Assembly: GCA_038064415.1 (NCBI GenBank)
Contig: JBBTTD010000002.1
Location: forward strand, 8,865-72,864
DNA length: 64,000 nt
Origin: Patescibacteria group bacterium
Lineage (GTDB): Bacteria > Patescibacteriota > Minisyncoccia > Phycocordibacterales > PALSA-1337
Direction: 5' to 3'
In this document: positions 822-60,757 of the stretch, piece by piece
Layout of the letters: each line of letters opens with the position of its first letter
Position numbering within the stretch: position 1 is the stretch's first letter
The notes under the pieces: generated by a model
What the model saw: only the letters and a program-made list of their open reading frames with translations
What the model was told of the DNA's origin: nothing
Database searches by the model: none
Translations under genes and position numbers: made by a program

Positions 822-989
822 TTAAACTAAGTCTTTATTAAAATCCTCGTATTTATTTTCTTTACCACACCAAGGACAATACCAGTCCTTTTTTTCTAAA
901 GGTATGTCGCCGACAGTCCACCATTTTTTACAAAATATACAATGAAAATGGTTTAGAATTTCGGTTGATTTTTTACTTATTTTGACCAT
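822..989 (-). CDS. Small zinc-ribbon protein (CxxC...CxxC)
   Basis: ORF in the track, with a likely start at internal Met (MVKISKK, ATG at 987-989). Motifs CIFCKK and CPWCGKE are spaced ~19 aa apart. It overlaps the last ~17 nt of secA in another frame. Confidence 0.35.
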   Translation of the reverse strand: MVKISKKSTEILNHFHCIFCKKWWTVGDIPLEKKDWYCPWCGKENKYEDFNKDLV

Positions 990-3684
990 GACACTTTTTA
1001 TATTTCTTCCCAGATCCGCACGGACACGGATCATTCCTGCCCACTTCCGCTTCTTTTTTAATTAACTGTGAATTATTTGATTCATCACCAGCGCCAATCA
1101 TTTGAGCATTTTCATGAACTTCTTTGAGATTTTTTTGTTCAGAATCAACGGGCATGCCATTTACCATCGGAACTATGTGTGGCAAAACTTTGATCACTTG
1201 CGCCTGCATTGCTCCTTGCATTTCTTTGAAAAGGCGTAAACCTTCTTTTTTATATTCAACTAATGGATCACGCTGGCCGTAAGCGCGTAAATTGACGCTA
1301 GAACGAGTATAATCCATGACTTCTAGGTGTTCCACCCAATACATATCAATGGCTTGCAGAAGCACAATCCTGACCGCATTTAGGAAATCTTCACGACCGA
1401 ATTCGGCGATTTTTTTATTGATAATTGAATTGATGTCGGGCGTGGTTGGTGAAAGCGAATCCGAAGGACGCTTCGGAGCGAGCGAAGGCGAGTGAGAACC
1501 AGACGCGGCGCGAGCACGCACCGACGGCGTGTCCTGAGGAACGCTTTCACCAACCACGTCTGTAAGTTCATTCAACTCTTCTTCTACATCATCAGCATTT
1601 CCAAGTAATAATTTTCGGCGTCGTGAATAAATACTGGTTCGCTGATGGTTGATAACATCATCAAATTCCAAAACATGTTTGCGCGAATCAAAGTTAAATC
1701 CTTCAATTTTTTCTTGAGCGCTTTCCAATGAACGAGAAATTAACTTATGCTCAATCGGAACATCATCAGCCGCGCCAAGTTTGCCCATCATGGTTTTCAA
1801 CATGTCAGAAGCAAAAACACGCATCAAAGTATCTTCAAGCGAGACGAAAAATTGCGTCTCGCCAGGATCACCTTGACGACCCGAACGACCACGCAACTGA
1901 TTGTCAATTCGGCGTGCTTCATGTCTTTCGGTTCCAAGAACAAATAATCCACCTGATTTTTTAATTTCAATATATGTTTCAGAAGTATTTGGGTTTCCGC
2001 CAAGCTTGATGTCCACTCCACGACCCGCCATGTTTGTGGCAATTGTAACCGCGCCCTTTTTACCAGCTTGAGCGATAATTTCACCTTCACGCTCATGGTT
2101 TTTGGCATTGAGCATTTGATGAGGAATACCTTCAGATTTCAAAAATTGCGAAAGTAATTCATTTTTTTCAATGGAGACCGTTCCAATCAATACTGGTTGA
2201 CCCTTGGCGTGAAGTTCTTTGACTTTGCGAGCAACAGCTTTGAATTTACCAAGTTCTGTCTGAAAAATCTGGTCATTACTGTCAATACGAATTTGCATAG
2301 CATTCGTCGGAACGACAAAAACTTCCAACCCATAGACTTTATAAAACTCTTCTGAAGAGGTTGCCGCCGTACCTGTCATTCCAGCTAATTTTGGATACAT
2401 TCTGAAAAAGTTCTGAAATGTAATTGAGGCGTAAGTCCGTGATTCTTGCTGAATACTTACTCCCTCTTTGGCTTCAATCGCCTGATGCAAACCATCAGAC
2501 CAACGACGACCTGGTTGCATGCGTCCAGTAAACTCATCAACAATGACGATTTGATTATCTTTGACAACATATTCTTTATCTTTATTGTACAAAGCTTGGG
2601 CCTTTATGGCGGTCTCCAAATGATGCGCGGATTTGATGCCTCTGTCAGTATAAATATTATCTATTCCCAAAATTTTTTCAGCTTTGGTAATTCCGACTGA
2701 TGTCAGCGAAATTGAGCGATGTTTTTCTTCAACAATGTAGTCTTCATCTTTTTTGAATGATCGGACCATTGCGGCAAACTGTTTGTAGATCGCTTCAGCA
2801 TCACGAGTTGGCGCGGAAATAATTAAAGGCGTTCGGGCTTCGTCAATCAAAATAGAGTCAATTTCATCAACAATCGCGTAGTTTGGTTCACGCTGACGCA
2901 ATTTGTCTGGACTATACTCCAAATTATCTCTCAAATAATCAAAACCAAATTCATTGTTAGTTCCATAGGTAATGTCGGCGGCGTAAGCTTCCCGGCGTGT
3001 ACAAGGTCGCAAAAATTCGTGAACAACTTTGAAAGCGCCGAGTTGGTCGCGTTCAGTATCAAGTTTGTCTTCTTTTGTATCTTTGGGGTTTTGAATTTCT
3101 GGTTTTGAATTTGTCTCGGATTTTGGATTTTGAATTTCAGTCTTATTTTTATGCGCTGGATCATACAAAAATGAAGCCTCATTATTTATCACGGCAACCG
3201 ATAAACCAAGAAAAGAATAGACCTGACCCATCCAGACCGCGTCGCGTCGTGACAAATAGTCGTTTACGGTAACGACATGAATTCCTTTTCCAGTAAGCGC
3301 GTTCAAATATGTCGGTAGAGTCGCCACTAAAGTTTTTCCTTCACCAGTTCTCATCTCTGCGATGGCCCCAGAATTCAAAACCATGCCTCCAAGAAGTTGG
3401 ACATCAAAATGTCTTTGACCCAAGGTCCTGCGCGCCGCCTCACGGACAACAGCGAATGCATCGGGAAGAATCTCATTTAAAATCGCTTCAATTTTTGGAT
3501 CATTGGCTTTCAGATCTAATCTCTTCTTGAATTCATCCGTTTTCGCCCTTAATTGATCATCAGAGAGTGCTTGGATTGTCGCTTCAAGCGCGTTGATTTG
3601 CCCGACAATTGGCTGAAACTGCTTCAAGTTTCGGGTATGTGAATTTCCCTTTAATCTATCCCAAAATGACATAATAAGAGCCAC
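973..3684 (-). CDS. secA: Preprotein translocase ATPase SecA
   Basis: 903 aa. Matches SecA throughout: Walker A (MRTGEGKT), REAYAADITYGTNNEFGFDYLRDN, GRSGRQGDPG, DMYWVEHL, and a C-terminal zinc finger (CPCGSGKKYKKCHG). It carries two unusual insertions (see findings). Confidence 0.95.
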   Translation of the reverse strand: MALIMSFWDRLKGNSHTRNLKQFQPIVGQINALEATIQALSDDQLRAKTDEFKKRLDLKANDPKIEAILNEILPDAFAVVREAARRTLGQRHFDVQLLGGMVLNSGAIAEMRTGEGKTLVATLPTYLNALTGKGIHVVTVNDYLSRRDAVWMGQVYSFLGLSVAVINNEASFLYDPAHKNKTEIQNPKSETNSKPEIQNPKDTKEDKLDTERDQLGAFKVVHEFLRPCTRREAYAADITYGTNNEFGFDYLRDNLEYSPDKLRQREPNYAIVDEIDSILIDEARTPLIISAPTRDAEAIYKQFAAMVRSFKKDEDYIVEEKHRSISLTSVGITKAEKILGIDNIYTDRGIKSAHHLETAIKAQALYNKDKEYVVKDNQIVIVDEFTGRMQPGRRWSDGLHQAIEAKEGVSIQQESRTYASITFQNFFRMYPKLAGMTGTAATSSEEFYKVYGLEVFVVPTNAMQIRIDSNDQIFQTELGKFKAVARKVKELHAKGQPVLIGTVSIEKNELLSQFLKSEGIPHQMLNAKNHEREGEIIAQAGKKGAVTIATNMAGRGVDIKLGGNPNTSETYIEIKKSGGLFVLGTERHEARRIDNQLRGRSGRQGDPGETQFFVSLEDTLMRVFASDMLKTMMGKLGAADDVPIEHKLISRSLESAQEKIEGFNFDSRKHVLEFDDVINHQRTSIYSRRRKLLLGNADDVEEELNELTDVVGESVPQDTPSVRARAASGSHSPSLAPKRPSDSLSPTTPDINSIINKKIAEFGREDFLNAVRIVLLQAIDMYWVEHLEVMDYTRSSVNLRAYGQRDPLVEYKKEGLRLFKEMQGAMQAQVIKVLPHIVPMVNGMPVDSEQKNLKEVHENAQMIGAGDESNNSQLIKKEAEVGRNDPCPCGSGKKYKKCHGQNK
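1441..1558. repeat. GC-rich palindromic element inserted in-frame within secA
   Basis: Perfect 17-bp inverted arms CGTGGTTGGTGAAAGCG (1441-1457) and CGCTTTCACCAACCACG (1542-1558) flank an 84-nt segment of ~65% GC with an inner hairpin CCGAAG-GACG-CTTCGG. It encodes an atypical Ser/Pro/Ala-rich SecA segment (VVGESVPQDTPSVRARAASGSHSPSLAPKRPSDSLSPTTP). Confidence 0.55.
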
Positions 3685-4913: not shown

Positions 4914-5069
4914 AAAAAGTGAACAGGGCGTGTGGGTATTTTTCTGAGACGAGTATGCGATTGGTGCGTCAGTCTATTGTATGGCAAGGCAGACATTCTT
5001 GGCAGACCACGAAATTGGAAGACGAATACGCAGTCTCAGAAAAATACCCACACACCCTGTTCACTTTTT
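4914..5069. repeat. Long near-perfect inverted repeat (37-bp arms, 1 mismatch, 82-nt spacer); candidate structured RNA or MITE-like element
   Basis: Arm 4914-4950 (AAAAAGTGAACAGGGCGTGTGGGTATTTTTCTGAGAC) is the reverse complement of 5033-5069 except for one C/A mismatch. It lies in the GC-richer 426-nt gap between two minus-strand genes. A second hairpin (GATGGCGACGG...CCGTCGCCGTC) sits at ~4822-4880. Confidence 0.6.
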
Positions 5070-44936: not shown

Positions 44937-46949
44937 TCAATCATCCTTCAACACCCGCTTCAACACCTCCTCCGGCACTTCTTTTGGAGGCCGTGAAAAA
45001 TTTCCCTTTTGATCATCCTCTACTACTTTAGGTATTTTGGGAATCACCTTCAAATTTTTTAAGGAATTGAGTGGCTGAAAATCATCATTATTCTGTCTGC
45101 CTGGAATATTTTGAGCTAGAGACGCTTTCGGACTGTCAGCTTGAGTTGTCGTGGGTGATTTTTCTTGAACCCCGATTTCAGACTTTGGTTGAGAAAAATT
45201 TCGCGCCACGCCGAAATTTGACTGACTCTTCTGCAGCGCGGCCGCTAGAGCACTCTTTAAGTCGCCGAGATTTTTCTGTGTCGGAACTTTCGGATCATTT
45301 TTTGGAGAAATTGGCTTTGATGCAAGTGATGATAAGGAAACGGGTTTAATCGGTTGAGCAGAAGTCTGAGCTGGACGAGGCGCAACAGGCACAGAATGAT
45401 CTGACCTCTTCGCAGGCGCCATGGAGACATTGTCTGCCTGTTGCGCTGAGGAATTGCTAGGTTTTGCATCAACAGGCGAATTTTTAATACTTGAAGATGG
45501 TGTTGAATTTGAGACTGGTTTTGGTGCTGGTGGTTGCGCTGATTTTGGAACATTTGCCAATACTGGCGCGGGTGCAGGTGTAGCAGATTTTTGGACATTT
45601 GTGGCAACAGATGCAGGGGCAGGGGCAGCCACCTTCTTTGGAATCACGATCGGCTCATGGAACTTTATAACTTGCGCCTCAACTTCAGCCCTTGGTCTTG
45701 AGAATTGTTCTCGTGAGGACGCGATAATTTCATTCATGTACGAAGTATCTGGATGCGGAATCGGCGGCAAAGTTTTCGCGGAAAATGGCGACGAGCTCAA
45801 ACCGTCAATCATTAACTTTAGGTAAATTTGCGCGAAGCCAAGATTTACCAGATCCTCAATCGTAAAAGCTGGAGCAAATTCTTGTTCCAAAGCTTCGGCG
45901 TCAGTCGCGCCGACTCGAAAAGCAATCATTGTCCCGACGTTACCAAAAACCGCTGGACGAACCATTTCATCCATCTGTTCAATGTATTGATGGGCAATCG
46001 TCAAATTGAGTTTGTATTTTCTGGCTTCAGAAAGAATGTCGGCAAAAGAGGCATTGGCGAAGTTCTGAAATTCGTCAACAAAAAGATAAAAGTTCGGCAA
46101 CATCTGCATGACACGATCTGACACATCGGCACGCGACATGGCGGCCAGATAAATTTTGGTGACTAAAAGTCCACCGAGAAGCTTCATATTCTCATCACCA
46201 ATTCTCCCTTTTGAAAGGTTGATGATGATGATTTTTCTACTATCCATTGCTTCACGAAAATCAAAAGATGAGACGGGTTGGCCAATCATATTGCGAATCA
46301 ATGGATTGGCGGTAAATTGACCAACTTTGTTTTGAATTGCCGGAACCGCCTCTGCCGCCTGACGTTCGGTATAACTGGCAAATTCTTTAGTCCAAAATGC
46401 TTTAACCGACGGATCTTGAATGTGAGATATGATTTCTTTGCGATATTCTTTATCAGAAAGCATGCGATTGACGCCCAACAGAGTCGTGCCGGGCGCTTCG
46501 AGTAGAGCCAGCAAAGTGTTGGTCAGAATATATTCCATGCGAGCCGACCATGCGTCAACCCAAATCTTTTTGAAAGTACTCATCAATCCTGAAACCACAA
46601 GGTGGCGTTTTGTTTGATCCACGCTTTCAAGGACATTAAAAGAAATCGGATAGTCAACATCAAACGGCGCGATGTAAATGACATCTTTGATACGCTCCTT
46701 TGGAACATATTCAAGCATCAGATCGGCAGTTTTGCCGTGCGGATCAATAAAACACATACCTTCGCCATTTTGGATATCTTGGACGGCCATATTCTCCAGC
46801 ATGGTTGATTTTCCCATGCCGGTTTTACCAATCACATAGACATGTTTGGTACGATCTTTGGCTTTAATGCCAAATCTTACGCGTTTGTTGCGAGCGTCAG
46901 TTTCGGCAAAATAAGTTATGCGATTTTCGTCAATAGGTACAGGGGCCAT
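44937..46949 (-). CDS. Soluble VirD4/TraD/TraG-like (type IV coupling protein family) P-loop ATPase with a ~250-aa disordered Pro/Ala/Ser-rich C-terminal tail
   Basis: Walker A VIGKTGMGKST, FIDPHG (the DPxG coupling-protein motif), and Walker B LFVDEFQNF. No N-terminal TM helices. The C-terminal low-complexity tail is PKKVAAPAPASVATNV... Confidence 0.55.
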   Translation of the reverse strand: MAPVPIDENRITYFAETDARNKRVRFGIKAKDRTKHVYVIGKTGMGKSTMLENMAVQDIQNGEGMCFIDPHGKTADLMLEYVPKERIKDVIYIAPFDVDYPISFNVLESVDQTKRHLVVSGLMSTFKKIWVDAWSARMEYILTNTLLALLEAPGTTLLGVNRMLSDKEYRKEIISHIQDPSVKAFWTKEFASYTERQAAEAVPAIQNKVGQFTANPLIRNMIGQPVSSFDFREAMDSRKIIIINLSKGRIGDENMKLLGGLLVTKIYLAAMSRADVSDRVMQMLPNFYLFVDEFQNFANASFADILSEARKYKLNLTIAHQYIEQMDEMVRPAVFGNVGTMIAFRVGATDAEALEQEFAPAFTIEDLVNLGFAQIYLKLMIDGLSSSPFSAKTLPPIPHPDTSYMNEIIASSREQFSRPRAEVEAQVIKFHEPIVIPKKVAAPAPASVATNVQKSATPAPAPVLANVPKSAQPPAPKPVSNSTPSSSIKNSPVDAKPSNSSAQQADNVSMAPAKRSDHSVPVAPRPAQTSAQPIKPVSLSSLASKPISPKNDPKVPTQKNLGDLKSALAAALQKSQSNFGVARNFSQPKSEIGVQEKSPTTTQADSPKASLAQNIPGRQNNDDFQPLNSLKNLKVIPKIPKVVEDDQKGNFSRPPKEVPEEVLKRVLKDD

Positions 46950-49806: not shown

Positions 49807-49859
49807 AAATGTACATTACTACTGTTAAGACAGAAAGACAATGACTGCTCTATATTATA

Positions 49860-49961
49860 CGAGGTATGGTACATGAATTTCATAGGAGTTGTGCTGTATC
49901 ATCAACGAAAGTAATGTGATGGAACAACACAATTCCTATGAAATTCATGTACCATACCTCG
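49860..49961. repeat. Long inverted repeat (34-bp arms, one G-U position, 34-nt loop) in a divergent intergenic region
   Basis: Arm CGAGGTATGGTACATGAATTTCATAGGAGTTGTG (49860-49893) pairs with CACAATTCCTATGAAATTCATGTACCATACCTCG (49928-49961). One position pairs only as G-U, which hints at RNA-level structure. Confidence 0.6.
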
Positions 49962-50008
49962 TATTAAGATGCTTGCGTACTTTCATTCTACAGATTAGAC
50001 TGTTTTGC

Positions 50009-53040: not shown

Positions 53041-53197
53041 GGAAGCATGGAATAGTTTGTATTTTTATTGCCGAGGACTGTTTGAACGACTATAAATTGC
53101 TTGATAAAATGCGAATGACGTTTCTAGAGTATTTTATCAAGCAATTTAAGAAGTGAGTTCCGCAGGCACATAAAAATACAAACTATTCCATGCTTCC
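53041..53197 (+). ncRNA. Candidate structured RNA / palindromic element, copy A (nested perfect inverted repeats plus conserved blocks shared with copy B)
   Basis: Outer 28-bp perfect arms at 53041-53068 and 53170-53197. Inner 16-bp perfect arms at 53095-53110 and 53131-53146. Conserved blocks TGCCGAGGACTGTTTGAACGACTA, GCGAATGACG and GAGTTCCGCAGGCAC are shared with 60570-60735 (opposite strand), with compensatory changes in the inner stem. Confidence 0.45.
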
Positions 53198-55170: not shown

Positions 55171-56634
55171 ATGACAAAAAATTCTGTTCAAAAAATACCC
55201 GCGCACCTCCACATCATCGGCATCTGCGGTGTCGCTACTAGTGCCTTGGCAATTGCTTTTCACAAGAAGGGCGTAAAAGTGACCGGAAGCGATAAGGGAT
55301 TTTTTCCTCCAGTTTCAATTGAATTAGAGAAACAAAAAATTGAGTTCTACGCTGGTTGGCATCCAGAAAAGATGGTCGCGAATGGTAGACCGGATACTAT
55401 TATAATCGGCGGTGGCGGAACTAGTCCTTCAAATCCCGAAATTATTTACGCCAAAGAACATAACATTTCTGTTTATTCATACGCGGAAATTCTACAAAAA
55501 TATTTCATCAAAAAAAATTCAATCGTTGTGACAGGAACCTGGGGAAAAACAACCATTTCCGCCATGCTTTCATTCGTTCTTTTGAGAGCCAAAATGGATC
55601 CAAGTTATTTTACCGGCGGACTTTCACTTTCTCATGATACCGGCGCGTTGTCCGATTCAAATTGGAGTGTGGTTGAAGGCGATGAATATCAAGTTTCAAT
55701 TTCTGATCATAGACCAAAATTTGTCTACTATTCCCCTACTTATCTAATTTTGACTTCAGTGTCTTGGGATCATGCTGATTTATATCCAACAGAAAAGGCA
55801 TATTTTGATGAATTCAGAAATTTAGTCAATAAAATTCCAGAAAATGGAAAAATCGTTGCTTGTATTGATAATGATGGAGTGAAAAAAATTATTGGAGACA
55901 AATTAGAATCTGGCGAAAGAATCATTACTTATGGAAAAACTGCCGGTACAAATTATCAATATGATTCAGTCATTCCGACAAAAAATGGCTTGGATTTCAT
56001 AATTGAATCAGCGCGGGGTAGACCAGCGCACGCGTCATTCAAGATTCACTCGCCAATGCTCGGTCGCTTCAATGCTGAAAATATCACCGCAGTATTCGCT
56101 ATGGCTAGTGAAGTTGGGATCAAACCGGAAAAAATAATCAAAGCTATTGCTGAATTCAAAGGAATAAAACGCCGATTTGAGAAACGGTTTGAAGGTGAAA
56201 TAACCGTCATGGATTGTCACGCTCCAACTCCCGAAAAAGCAGCATCGGTGTTGGAAAATATCAAAGAAGTATATAAAAATAAAATAATCGCGGTTTATGA
56301 ACCGAATATCGGCGGACGACAAAGAAGTTCCGCAGGAATGTATGATGGCGCCTTTAAAGATGCTGATATCGTGATTGTCCCGCGATTAACAAAACTAAAG
56401 ATTGAGCGAGGTCCGACCTCGCTAGCGAGGTCCGACCTCGCTCAAAAACCTCTGGAGGGCGATGAATTGGCGCGAATTATTGGTAAAACACACACCAATG
56501 TCCACTATTTAGCAAATGATGAGGATCTAGTCACATTTTTGAAGTCAGAAGCAAAAAGAGGTGATATGATCGCCTTTCTCGGCTCACATGGCTTCAGGGG
56601 AATGATTGAGGAGACAGTAAAAAAATTCCAATAA
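55171..56634 (+). CDS. Mur ligase family: UDP-N-acetylmuramate--L-alanine ligase (MurC) or Mpl-type ligase
   Basis: N-terminus HIIGICGVATSALAIAF...VTGSD is MurC/Mpl-type. P-loop VVTGTWGKTT. The C-terminal domain carries the inserted palindrome. Confidence 0.75.
   Translation: MTKNSVQKIPAHLHIIGICGVATSALAIAFHKKGVKVTGSDKGFFPPVSIELEKQKIEFYAGWHPEKMVANGRPDTIIIGGGGTSPSNPEIIYAKEHNISVYSYAEILQKYFIKKNSIVVTGTWGKTTISAMLSFVLLRAKMDPSYFTGGLSLSHDTGALSDSNWSVVEGDEYQVSISDHRPKFVYYSPTYLILTSVSWDHADLYPTEKAYFDEFRNLVNKIPENGKIVACIDNDGVKKIIGDKLESGERIITYGKTAGTNYQYDSVIPTKNGLDFIIESARGRPAHASFKIHSPMLGRFNAENITAVFAMASEVGIKPEKIIKAIAEFKGIKRRFEKRFEGEITVMDCHAPTPEKAASVLENIKEVYKNKIIAVYEPNIGGRQRSSAGMYDGAFKDADIVIVPRLTKLKIERGPTSLARSDLAQKPLEGDELARIIGKTHTNVHYLANDEDLVTFLKSEAKRGDMIAFLGSHGFRGMIEETVKKFQ
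56402..56445. repeat. 44-bp GC-rich near-perfect palindrome (tandem 20-bp units) inserted in-frame in the Mur ligase gene
   Basis: TTGAGCGAGGTCCGACCTCGCTAGCGAGGTCCGACCTCGCTCAA matches its own reverse complement at 42 of 44 positions. ~60% GC against a ~35% background. It encodes ERGPTSLARSDLAQ. Confidence 0.6.
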
Positions 56635-57801: not shown

Positions 57802-57809
57802 CAGTGAGA

Positions 57810-57921
57810 AACAAAGCAAGAAGCGGGTGTGAATTTTATGAAAGACTGCAATCTCTTTGCGTGGAACGCGAGACAATTATAACGGTCTTTCATAAAATTC
57901 ACACCCGCTTCTTGCTTTGTT
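57810..57921. repeat. 37-bp perfect inverted repeat (38-nt loop) exactly between convergent stop codons; candidate bidirectional terminator or structured element
   Basis: Arm 57810-57846 (AACAAAGCAAGAAGCGGGTGTGAATTTTATGAAAGAC) is the perfect reverse complement of 57885-57921. It is flanked by the PALP gene stop at 57799-57801 and the murD stop at 57930. Confidence 0.6.
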
Positions 57922-57929
57922 ACTATTTC

Positions 57930-60521: not shown

Positions 60522-60569
60522 GAAAACAATTATAACATAGTGAGAGAAAAATCAAGAAAAAGAAACCTG

Positions 60570-60735
60570 ACAAGGTATGCATTTTTATGTGCCTGCGGAA
60601 CTCGCTCCTGAAATTTCTAGGTAAAAGGCTCAGGAATTACTCAAATCTTCGACTTGGTAATTCCAACGCCATTCGCCTTTTACCAAGAAATTTCTAGTCG
60701 CTCAAACAGTCCTCGGCAATAAAAATGCATACCTT
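60570..60735 (-). ncRNA. Candidate structured RNA / palindromic element, copy B (opposite strand to copy A)
   Basis: Outer 18-bp perfect arms at 60570-60587 and 60718-60735. Inner 19-bp arms have one mismatch. An extra internal hairpin GGAATTAC...GTAATTCC is present. In minus orientation it shares TGCCGAGGACTGTTTGAGCGACTA, CGAATGGCG and GAGTTCCGCAGGCAC with copy A. Confidence 0.45.
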
Positions 60736-60757
60736 GCCGAGTTTCTTTAGCTTTTTA

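Follow-up and report, generated by a model that had tools for sequence, protein, structure and literature searches.

How a GC-rich palindrome came to lie within an essential gene, and what kind of element it represents, is the question raised by positions 1441-1558 of the window analysed here, by which we mean the whole 64-kb stretch of DNA under study. The window is part of a 75-kb contig (JBBTTD010000002.1) of a Patescibacteria group bacterium from Hainich groundwater, and the palindrome lies inside its secA gene. A preliminary description of this DNA had likened the segment to the Rickettsia palindromic elements (RPEs), selfish repeats that are inserted in frame and read through. Our analysis places it as one copy of a dispersed family of GC-rich palindromes specific to Patescibacteria (Paceibacteria-type bacteria of the Candidate Phyla Radiation, CPR). 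The unit that repeats is an 84-nt core rather than the arms that enclose it, as had been supposed; the arms are unique to each insertion site.

The 17-mer CGTGGTTGGTGAAAGCG at 1441-1457 has its exact reverse complement at 1542-1558, and the + strand of 1441-1558 therefore reads CGTGGTTGGTGAAAGCG, 84 nt and CGCTTTCACCAACCACG. A search of the window for the 17-nt arm, allowing up to three mismatches, returned these two matches alone (0.06 expected by chance). GC content is 0.64 across 1451-1550 and about 0.36-0.44 in the flanks, and an inner hairpin lies at 1504-1526 (in sense, GGTGCG-TGCT-CGCGCC), so that the GC-rich segment, the perfect arms and the inner hairpin were all found as first described. 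The segment 1441-1558 folds far better than its dinucleotide shuffles, both on the mRNA-sense strand (z = -5.2) and on the + strand (z = -6.8); the G-rich complementary strand folds at -72.9 kcal/mol and the core-sense strand at -61.8 kcal/mol.

The host open reading frame (ORF) is secA, on the minus strand at 973-3684 and 903 amino acids long. It is 100 % identical to an 899-residue SecA filed at NCBI under 'Patescibacteria group bacterium', whose start lies four codons downstream. The element has the same sense as secA. In that sense its 5' arm, CGTGGTTGGTGAAAGCG (1542-1558, minus strand), encodes (D)VVGES, with about 13 of its 17 nt being native secA codons, and the 84-nt core (1458-1541) is followed by the 3' arm, CGCTTTCACCAACCACG (1441-1457), which encodes (S)LSPTT and has no counterpart in genes with an empty site. 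The segment is read in secA as DVVGESVPQDTPSVRARAASGSHSPSLAPKRPSDSLSPTTP (about 40 residues; residues 705-745 of the protein, P0001), and read-through would yield tryptic peptides that include AASGSHSPSLAPK and RPSDSLSPTTPDINSIINK. Although 118 nt is not divisible by three, the secA frame is kept because the 5' arm is partly native secA sequence: set against relatives that lack the insertion, the gene has gained a net 105 nt or so (35 codons), namely AGCG, the 84 nt and 17 nt.

Further copies were sought with a 21-nt core pattern, TCNCCTTCGCTCNNTCCGAAG, in one genome per species (185,579 species genomes). The scan returned 71 loci, of which 22 (23 copies) have the full core and long site-specific arms; all 22 belong to low-GC metagenome-assembled genomes (MAGs) of Patescibacteria, labelled Paceibacterota, Taylorbacteria, Nomurabacteria, 'Saccharibacteria' or uncultured. 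Another 48 loci, mostly from GC-rich phyla, contain the bare pattern and no element by the covariance model, and one locus (L024) was discarded by inspection and model search. Six genomes carry copies on two or three contigs, and one of these, CAZRRZ01, also has two copies within a single locus (L035). An independent 5' pattern run over Joint Genome Institute (JGI) metagenomes added 16 loci, with two copies on one 856-kb contig. In all, some 40 copies (41 in the count of coding contexts), 114-159 bp long, lie at unrelated loci, each an 84-nt core inside a perfect or near-perfect inverted repeat of 12-33 bp (typically 17-22 bp). The test for other copies thus gave a divided answer: none for the arms within the window, and many for the interior at unrelated Patescibacteria loci, mostly in frame. 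The absence of further arm copies is uninformative as a refutation, because the arms are site-specific.

Within the window, the covariance model (R1) finds the secA copy on the minus strand at 1439-1561 (131.9 bits, E = 2.6e-32) as the sole true copy; its remaining matches there are unrelated hairpins with the same score on either strand, and the rest of the window's own contig holds no further copy. Viral contigs, plasmids and phages yielded none. A gathering-threshold scan of the window with Rfam 15 gave one tRNA, and 1400-1600 had no match at E <= 10. At the protein level, a 43-residue profile of the element peptide had no match at E <= 1 among 5.8 billion proteins, the peptide being short and of low complexity, and phmmer with the 41-residue window peptide returned 0 matches among 1.84 billion representatives, again with a query too short and too low in complexity.

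Most copies lie in genes. Long ORFs contain 34 of the 41, with 22 in the sense of the host gene and 12 opposite to it, and about seven lie in spacers or in short spurious ORFs. The hosts, assigned by Pfam, include proteins of DNA replication and repair (DNA polymerase III alpha, DnaE; primase, DnaG, in two genomes; PolA, TopA, UvrB, RecG and LigA) and of translation and RNA modification (leucyl-tRNA synthetase, LeuRS, encoded by leuS; Tgt; TypA/BipA; and an S-adenosylmethionine (SAM) methyltransferase), together with an ABC ATPase, a ComF-like phosphoribosyltransferase (PRTase) and SecA at two sites. Each genic copy is stop-free in its host frame, and one frame is used per orientation. The 22 host-sense copies share a single frame, ..P[QR]DTPS....A[AS]GSPSPSL.PKRPS.., a Ser/Pro/Ala-rich peptide of the form '..DTPS..GSPSPSLSPKRPS..', and the canonical ones among the 12 antisense copies read ..GRFG[LAP]SEGE[GR]EPAA..VDGVSR.., or '..GRFGLSEGEGEPAA..VDGVSR..'. 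These two frames are exactly the pair that is swapped when the 84-nt core is flipped between its arms. All 13 independent same-orientation sites use frame S0, whereas the Arg/Leu-rich frame S1, although open in 25 of 31 copies, is used at none of the 13, which suggests that the peptide is filtered and hence that it is translated. Some arms contain small symmetric 3-nt bubbles (TCA opposite TGA, TTC opposite GAA) that probably reflect avoidance of in-frame stops. That each genic copy is stop-free in its host frame implies ordinary translation; an intein, an intron, a ribozyme and translational bypass were considered and rejected on the stop-free host frames, the lack of splicing motifs and the presence of both orientations.

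The same observations bear on the simplest account of the window copy, namely that it is a lineage-specific, low-complexity SecA loop under protein selection whose palindrome is incidental, or else an artefact of assembly. The length of the site is hypervariable among SecA homologues and the peptide is rich in Ser, Pro and Ala, as such a loop would be. However, the same nucleotides are conserved in reverse complement, where they encode an entirely different peptide (L003, L036 and the tgt copies), and the same core recurs in spacers as well as in more than 12 unrelated proteins. The loop is refuted by the copies in reverse orientation and by those outside secA, and an artefact is excluded because the same element was recovered from many independent assemblies; we give this account almost no credence.

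In an alignment of 120 SecA homologues (69-78 % identity), the region between '..EL.....VG..' and '..IINKKIAEFGRE' is hypervariable. Many close relatives have no insert at this site; a homologous peptide, ..DTPS..AAGSPSPSLSPKRPSDS.., is found in several, and dissimilar-looking peptides such as ..RFGASEGE.. in others. Ortholog alignment, which the preliminary description had suggested, thus finds relatives polymorphic for the insert at exactly this position. In DNA, the relatives share the same interior of about 84 nt within wholly different yet perfectly complementary arms (GGAGCGGAGGCGGACATGG in L001, GGCGCGGCGGATGGGGCAG in L005, AGCGTCAGGTGATGTTG in L009), and peptides of the type '..FGLSEGEGE..' arise because the interior, as in L003, sits in reverse complement. 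An AlphaFold2 model of the window SecA (mean predicted local distance difference test score, pLDDT, 68) falls below 50 at residues 709-743, between helices at 693-705 and 747-758, and the element peptide therefore coincides with a low-confidence loop between two helices. The window copy is thus probably read through and, according to the model, would extend the C-terminal helical region of SecA by a flexible loop that lies between two of its helices.

The other low-confidence loop of the model, at residues 176-201, corresponds to a second insertion site, secA site 1 (the site of the window copy being site 2). In the window this position (3070-3147, residues ~176-201, pLDDT < 50) holds an AT-rich tandem repeat encoding ..TEIQNPKSETNSKPEIQNPKDTK... 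Elsewhere, site 1 holds a copy of the family in L001, L033, L036, L090 and L091, and in L009 a dimer of a repetitive extragenic palindrome (REP) of type CGTC-1. The secA gene of L001 has copies at both sites, with cores identical at 83 of 84 positions and unrelated arms. Site 2 is likewise occupied by other, longer GC-rich hairpins in L004 (5915-6142) and L036 (2683-2928, the same as L086:5770-6015), which have long arms, encode ..SRGLSERAEIVRPEDSS.. and ..SEPSSERHGLVLKQ.., and have a different interior, undetected by R1; this points to further families, related or unrelated, at the same site. At the 'empty' site 2 of L033 (3591-3689) there is a mini-hairpin, GGTTCTG-CGGAGC-CAGAAC, with a 6-bp stem and a 6-nt loop. 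It matches outer parts of the arms of the longer insert that L036 and L086 have here, as though an element had collapsed or been deleted and left a footprint.

On a SecA neighbour-joining tree, the 10 carriers at site 2 need 8 changes, compared with 9.7 in shuffles, the tree being weakly resolved. Carriers are therefore scattered, and site 2 appears to have repeatedly gained, lost or exchanged elements, the tree being too weak to choose between repeated gain and repeated loss.

Comparison of sites shows how differently arms and cores behave. Arms, measured by direct comparison because minimum free energy (MFE) folds that included the flanks gave spurious flank pairing, are unlike at every site and yet 0-1 mismatch from perfect. 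Six sites recur across genomes (secA-1, secA-2, dnaE, tgt, comF-like and methyltransferase), five of them with both core orientations. At one site, the arms of different genomes are recognisably homologous and differ at many positions, each change being compensated in the partner arm. Examples from tgt are AAGGCGGGTGAGGC.., AAGGCGGACGTGCGAGAC, AAGGCAGGTACGGGTAAC and AAGGCGGGTTTAGGAAGC; at tgt and dnaE the outer arm bases are common and the inner ones differ by compensated changes. Cores follow the genome more closely than the site, with a mean identity of 0.894 between different sites of one genome; the mean is 0.816 when one site is compared between genomes, and 0.777 for the remaining pairs.

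This behaviour bears on whether the element is a classical MITE (miniature inverted-repeat transposable element), with terminal inverted repeats recognised by a transposase encoded elsewhere and a target-site duplication. The copies are small, numerous, bounded by inverted repeats and spread over genes and spacers, as MITEs are. However, their arms share no sequence between sites, and terminal repeats that differ at every site cannot be the common recognition sequence of a transposase. Nor is there a direct target-site duplication: flanks match over 0-1 nt in 33 of 35 copies and over 2 nt in 2 of 35, which is the chance level, and the collected loci contain no split or longer, ORF-bearing version. 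We therefore regard a MITE as very unlikely.

The two orientations suggest another possibility, a programmed invertible switch in which the arms act as recombination sites and flipping of the core toggles loop isoforms of SecA or other hosts, or shuts them off. The comF-like copies of L027 and L035 have homologous arms and inverted cores, as expected from recombination between the arms. An 84-nt core keeps the frame when flipped, and the host frames are the flip-interconverted pair. Against this, the window copy has a TGA in its flipped frame and only about 6 of 15 same-orientation copies remain open when flipped; moreover, no invertase or recombinase gene is adjacent, and the orientation is fixed within each assembly. 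A switch is accordingly a highly improbable explanation.

The origin of the arms is best seen at secA site 2, where filled sites (the window, L001 and L005) can be compared codon by codon with empty ones (L093, L094, L095 and L033). The 5' arm starts within native V-G-(A/V)-(E/G/D) codons that are kept in the empty sites, and the 3' arm (SPTT, SASA, PSAA) has no counterpart there. From this we infer that the 3' arm copies the 5' flank in inverted orientation. In the window's own genome, the tgt gene (L096:19918-21111) is empty and reads ..HKRKGVVAESDALPALFG.. where four other genomes carry the element; a solo-arm hairpin was sought at this empty site, where the fold is no better than that of shuffles.

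We also examined the structure of the core, using a structure-independent MAFFT alignment of 31 distinct copies (A1). Near-invariant blocks (GGACACGCCGTC, CTGGTTCTC, CGCCTTCGC and TCCGAAGCGTCC) are separated by variable segments, and RNAalifold together with an explicit pair count gives a three-way junction formed by the outer arm stem P1, its continuation P1b, and two hairpins, P2 and P3. Paired cells amount to 82.8 %, compared with 63.5 % in column shuffles and 39-45 % with slid partners; 37 of 44 pairs show two-sided changes, and the covariation score is 0.51 versus 0.17. P1b extends the arm stem into the core; in the window its 5' strand, TCCTCAGGAC (1531-1540), pairs with its 3' strand, GTCCTTCGGA (1460-1469), both on the minus strand, and its consensus, TCCTCRGGAC / GTCCYTCGGA, covaries at A1 columns 38:116, 39:115 and 42:112. 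P2 (1504-1526, minus strand) has a CGTC head, a variable stem of 6-7 bp, a 4-nt loop and GCG. Across the 31 copies, 99.3 % of its cells are paired and eight of nine pairs have changed on both sides; within the head, G and T are invariant and both C are present in at least 90 % of rows, and the C, G and C may pair with the GCG that follows the stem. P3 (1470-1500, minus strand) is an irregular stem, G.UUC..CN..GC-CUUC-GC..NG..GAA.C, whose lower pairs covary (84:99 = CG18/GC7/AU3; 85:98 = UA11/CG10/GC7). In the Ga0172379 copies (L078, L079 and L081) a perfect GGCCGC/GCGGCC replaces the imperfect CTTCGC/GCTCAG part of P3, and L077 has GGCTGC/GCAGCC at this place. A subfamily with a TGTC head and an extra hairpin comprises L003, L020, L042 and L044. 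The three-way-junction fold is strongly supported by covariation in all helices.

Such a fold raises the possibility that the element is a selected, host-beneficial nucleic-acid structure, acting as a DNA hairpin or cruciform, as a protein-binding site in replication, recombination or supercoiling, or as RNA in translation or mRNA decay. Covariation in every helix, arms that stay perfect although diverged between orthologous copies, and highly conserved junction sequences all fit this idea, as does the enrichment of hosts for DNA replication and repair genes, which recalls intragenic REPs (PMC3733652). Stem mismatches on the core-sense strand of A1 include more A.C (53) than G.U (29), as though the complementary G-rich strand tolerated more wobble; this hints at one particular folding strand, or could be due to composition. 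In contrast, mRNA sense has no excess of G.U (41 G.U and 41 A.C mismatches), both orientations relative to host mRNA occur at five of the six recurrent sites, some copies are intergenic, and Rfam offers no counterpart at the threshold given above. An element acting in mRNA is excluded by the two orientations, the intergenic copies and the equal mismatch counts. The copy number is seemingly low and patchy; many close relatives have no element at a given site, and the L094 MAG is filled in tgt and comF and empty in secA. Such patchiness among close relatives and within one genome argues against necessity, and we consider a host-selected function unlikely.

We therefore favour, as the probable explanation, RPE- or REP-like selfish or neutral palindromic DNA that is translated as a disordered loop, the terms 'selfish' and 'mobile' reflecting how the copies are distributed. 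The element would spread as a hairpin at the DNA level, the core being what is copied or converted. Conversion could draw on the conserved P1b ends, with about 20 nt of homology at either side; gene conversion would homogenise the cores within each genome, and recombination between the arms would occasionally flip a core in place. The arms may derive partly from inverted duplication of adjoining host sequence, by fold-back or template switching at the hairpin, and the same hairpin-templated correction would remove mismatches between them, so that perfection could arise without selection for a host function. Copies would survive only where 35-40 or so extra residues form a tolerated, disordered surface loop in a benign frame. 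Hairpin-templated correction and template switching have been proposed for perfect coding palindromes in nematomorph mitochondria (PMC6649704), and a known precedent is offered by REPs and RPEs that lie within genes of replication and repair (PMC3733652, PMC10969869).

Several points weigh against this explanation. Neither a transposition event, nor an insertion polymorphism within a population, nor a candidate mobilising enzyme was seen, and about 750 kb of collected loci contain no split core, half-core, longer version or autonomous parent. The view that one arm is native and the other its inverted copy is based on four filled and four empty secA sites and is unclear for L003 and L009. Given the single copy on the 75-kb contig and the empty tgt site, activity in the window's own genome is no more than possible. 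In addition, perfect arms, strong covariation and a conserved core are equally expected of a selected functional structure, and the reappearance of the element at an identical codon position in diverged lineages could reflect ancient orthology or site-specific targeting.

A more far-reaching interpretation, possible but rather doubtful, would make the 84-nt core a cassette. Between fixed hairpin clamps in essential genes it would be copied, converted, flipped, replaced or deleted; the clamps themselves would have arisen by inverted duplication of host sequence and would be kept perfect by hairpin-templated correction. If this were true, the host gene would supply half of the terminal structure and the element could not decay, a mode of persistence of selfish DNA that is undescribed for REPs, RPEs and MITEs. 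In an equivalent form of this proposal, the core could be the recognition module of an enzyme of CPR bacteria that acts on single-stranded DNA hairpins.

The window contains other palindromes. Two opposite copies of an AT-rich intergenic palindrome of about 160-200 bp, with arms of 28-35 nt, lie at 53041-53197 and 60554-60753; they share TATTTTTATTGCCGAGGACTGTTTGARCGACTA and GAGTTCCGCAGGCACATAAAAAT, and no open frame spans either. Long inverted repeats at 49857-49964, 57807-57924 and 4914-5069 (arms of 48, 40 and 37 nt, 92-98 % complementary, GC 0.36-0.45) are mostly intergenic, the last lying between murB and a gene for a Wzy_C/TPR membrane protein, and their R1 scores are those of generic hairpins. 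A near-perfect palindrome of 44 nt at 56402-56445 (GC 0.64; TTGAGCGAGGTCCGACCTCGCT/AGCGAGGTCCGACCTCGCTCAA) is read as ..ERGPTSLARSDLAQ.. within a 487-residue ORF on the + strand (55171-56634), Mur ligase-like by sequence motifs only, and may be an arms-only hairpin without a core. Finally, an inverted repeat with 19-nt arms and a GC content of 0.58 lies at 45380-45446, in the low-complexity C-terminal part of a 670-residue P-loop protein ORF on the minus strand (44937-46949).

These findings mean that the tiny, streamlined genomes of Patescibacteria carry a GC-rich hairpin repeat within their most essential genes, namely secA and the genes for the replicative polymerase, primase, ligase, topoisomerase and a tRNA synthetase. 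The RPE phenomenon thereby gains a second case, remote in phylogeny and replicated many times independently in nature: since the same sites turn up filled, empty or flipped, or hold repeats of other families, comparative genomics can test how such DNA enters ORFs, how it is tolerated and how palindromes stay perfect. There are practical consequences as well. The inserts inflate and scramble the marker-gene protein alignments used for CPR phylogeny, create spurious 'lineage-specific insertions', and are potential hot spots for assembly errors and recombination. As the preliminary description had supposed of such lineages, no account of palindromic, REP-like or MITE-like in-frame elements in Patescibacteria or other CPR bacteria was found in the literature searched, which was incomplete.

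GC-rich hairpins that invade protein-coding genes of AT-rich genomes are familiar from fungal mitochondria, where they take the form of GC clusters, double-hairpin elements and the 'byp' elements cited in PMC6649704. Ribosomes skip byps, for which an in-frame position is not required, whereas the genic copies in Patescibacteria are all stop-free in the host frame. The coding palindromes that Mikhailov et al. (2019, PMC6649704) described in nematomorph mitochondria are similar in that perfect inverted repeats lie in translated sequence, arm perfection is binary and suggests conversion or template switching, elements are gained and lost between species, and a parasitic nature is possible. However, the nematomorph arms encode conserved native protein and enclose no shared mobile core, while the copies described here have a conserved core in common and arms that encode dispensable loop residues.

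Known palindromic repeats of bacteria are closer. RPEs are palindromic repeats of about 150 bp found in frame in many unrelated Rickettsia genes, with a conserved peptide for each family (PMC10969869); RPE-1 to RPE-10 were described by Ogata et al. 2000 (summaries in PMC10969869 and PMC3733652). The Patescibacteria element likewise consists of palindromic repeats of about 100-150 bp, dispersed in a small genome and in frame in unrelated essential genes, with a family-specific peptide that is read through, insertions thought to lie in surface loops and no known transposase, and the host genes overlap (dnaE, uvrB, polA and tRNA-modifying enzymes). The two nevertheless differ in several respects. 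The hosts here are Patescibacteria, and the core pattern matched no Rickettsia genome, the RPE consensus sequences themselves being outside this comparison. The core alone is repeated, within site-specific and partly host-derived arms, whereas the repeat unit of RPEs includes their ends. The arms are kept perfect or nearly so, whereas those of RPEs are reported to lose identity (PMC6649704), and the core is also found flipped at one and the same site. The RPE-like reading therefore stands as regards in-frame insertion, read-through and dispersal in ORFs; it fails as regards membership of an RPE family and decay of the arms.

REPs tagged GTAG or CGTC can also be intragenic, notably in dnaE, uvrABC, polA, ligase and tRNA synthetase genes (Di Nocera et al. 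2013, PMC3733652). CGTC-1 is RPE-6 and CGTC-4 is RPE-4, and CGTC REPs have no known transposase (PMC3733652). P2 resembles them in its CGTC head (TGTC in one subfamily, a variant noted in PMC3733652) and its 4-nt loop, and the element shares with them intragenic copies in replication and repair genes and the lack of an associated transposase. On the other hand, the P2 stem is hypervariable and 6-7 bp long, with A/T first pairs in some copies only, whereas REP stems have 8-9 bp, start with two A/T pairs and enclose a loop of 4-5 nt; the tail is GCG(G) here and CCA in REPs. In addition, a REP unit has 20-40 bp and is single or forms inverted dimers of like units, whereas the element has 118 bp and is a three-way junction in which an outer clamp encloses two inner hairpins that differ from each other. 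Genuine CGTC-1-type REPs (TGTCATTCCCGCGAAAGCGGGAATCCA) do occur in Patescibacteria, at L034:3261-3346, L034:672-690, L034:7649-7739 and L009:1688-1772. Among them are inverted dimers that sit in frame, in LeuRS (L034) and at secA site 1 (L009), and look unlike the 84-nt-core family; the peptides encoded, VIPAKAGIQ...DSRFRGND, are those listed for R. conorii CGTC-1/RPE-6 (PMC3733652, Additional file 3). The presence of CGTC-1 REPs at the same permissive sites indicates that this lineage hosts several palindromic families.

The element as a whole is therefore not an RPE by sequence, not a REP unit or dimer, and not a MITE. Three features make it unusual beside these systems: perfect, site-specific arms that appear to derive from host sequence; a core that folds as a covarying three-way junction; and flipping of that core in place, combined with concerted evolution of the cores within each genome.

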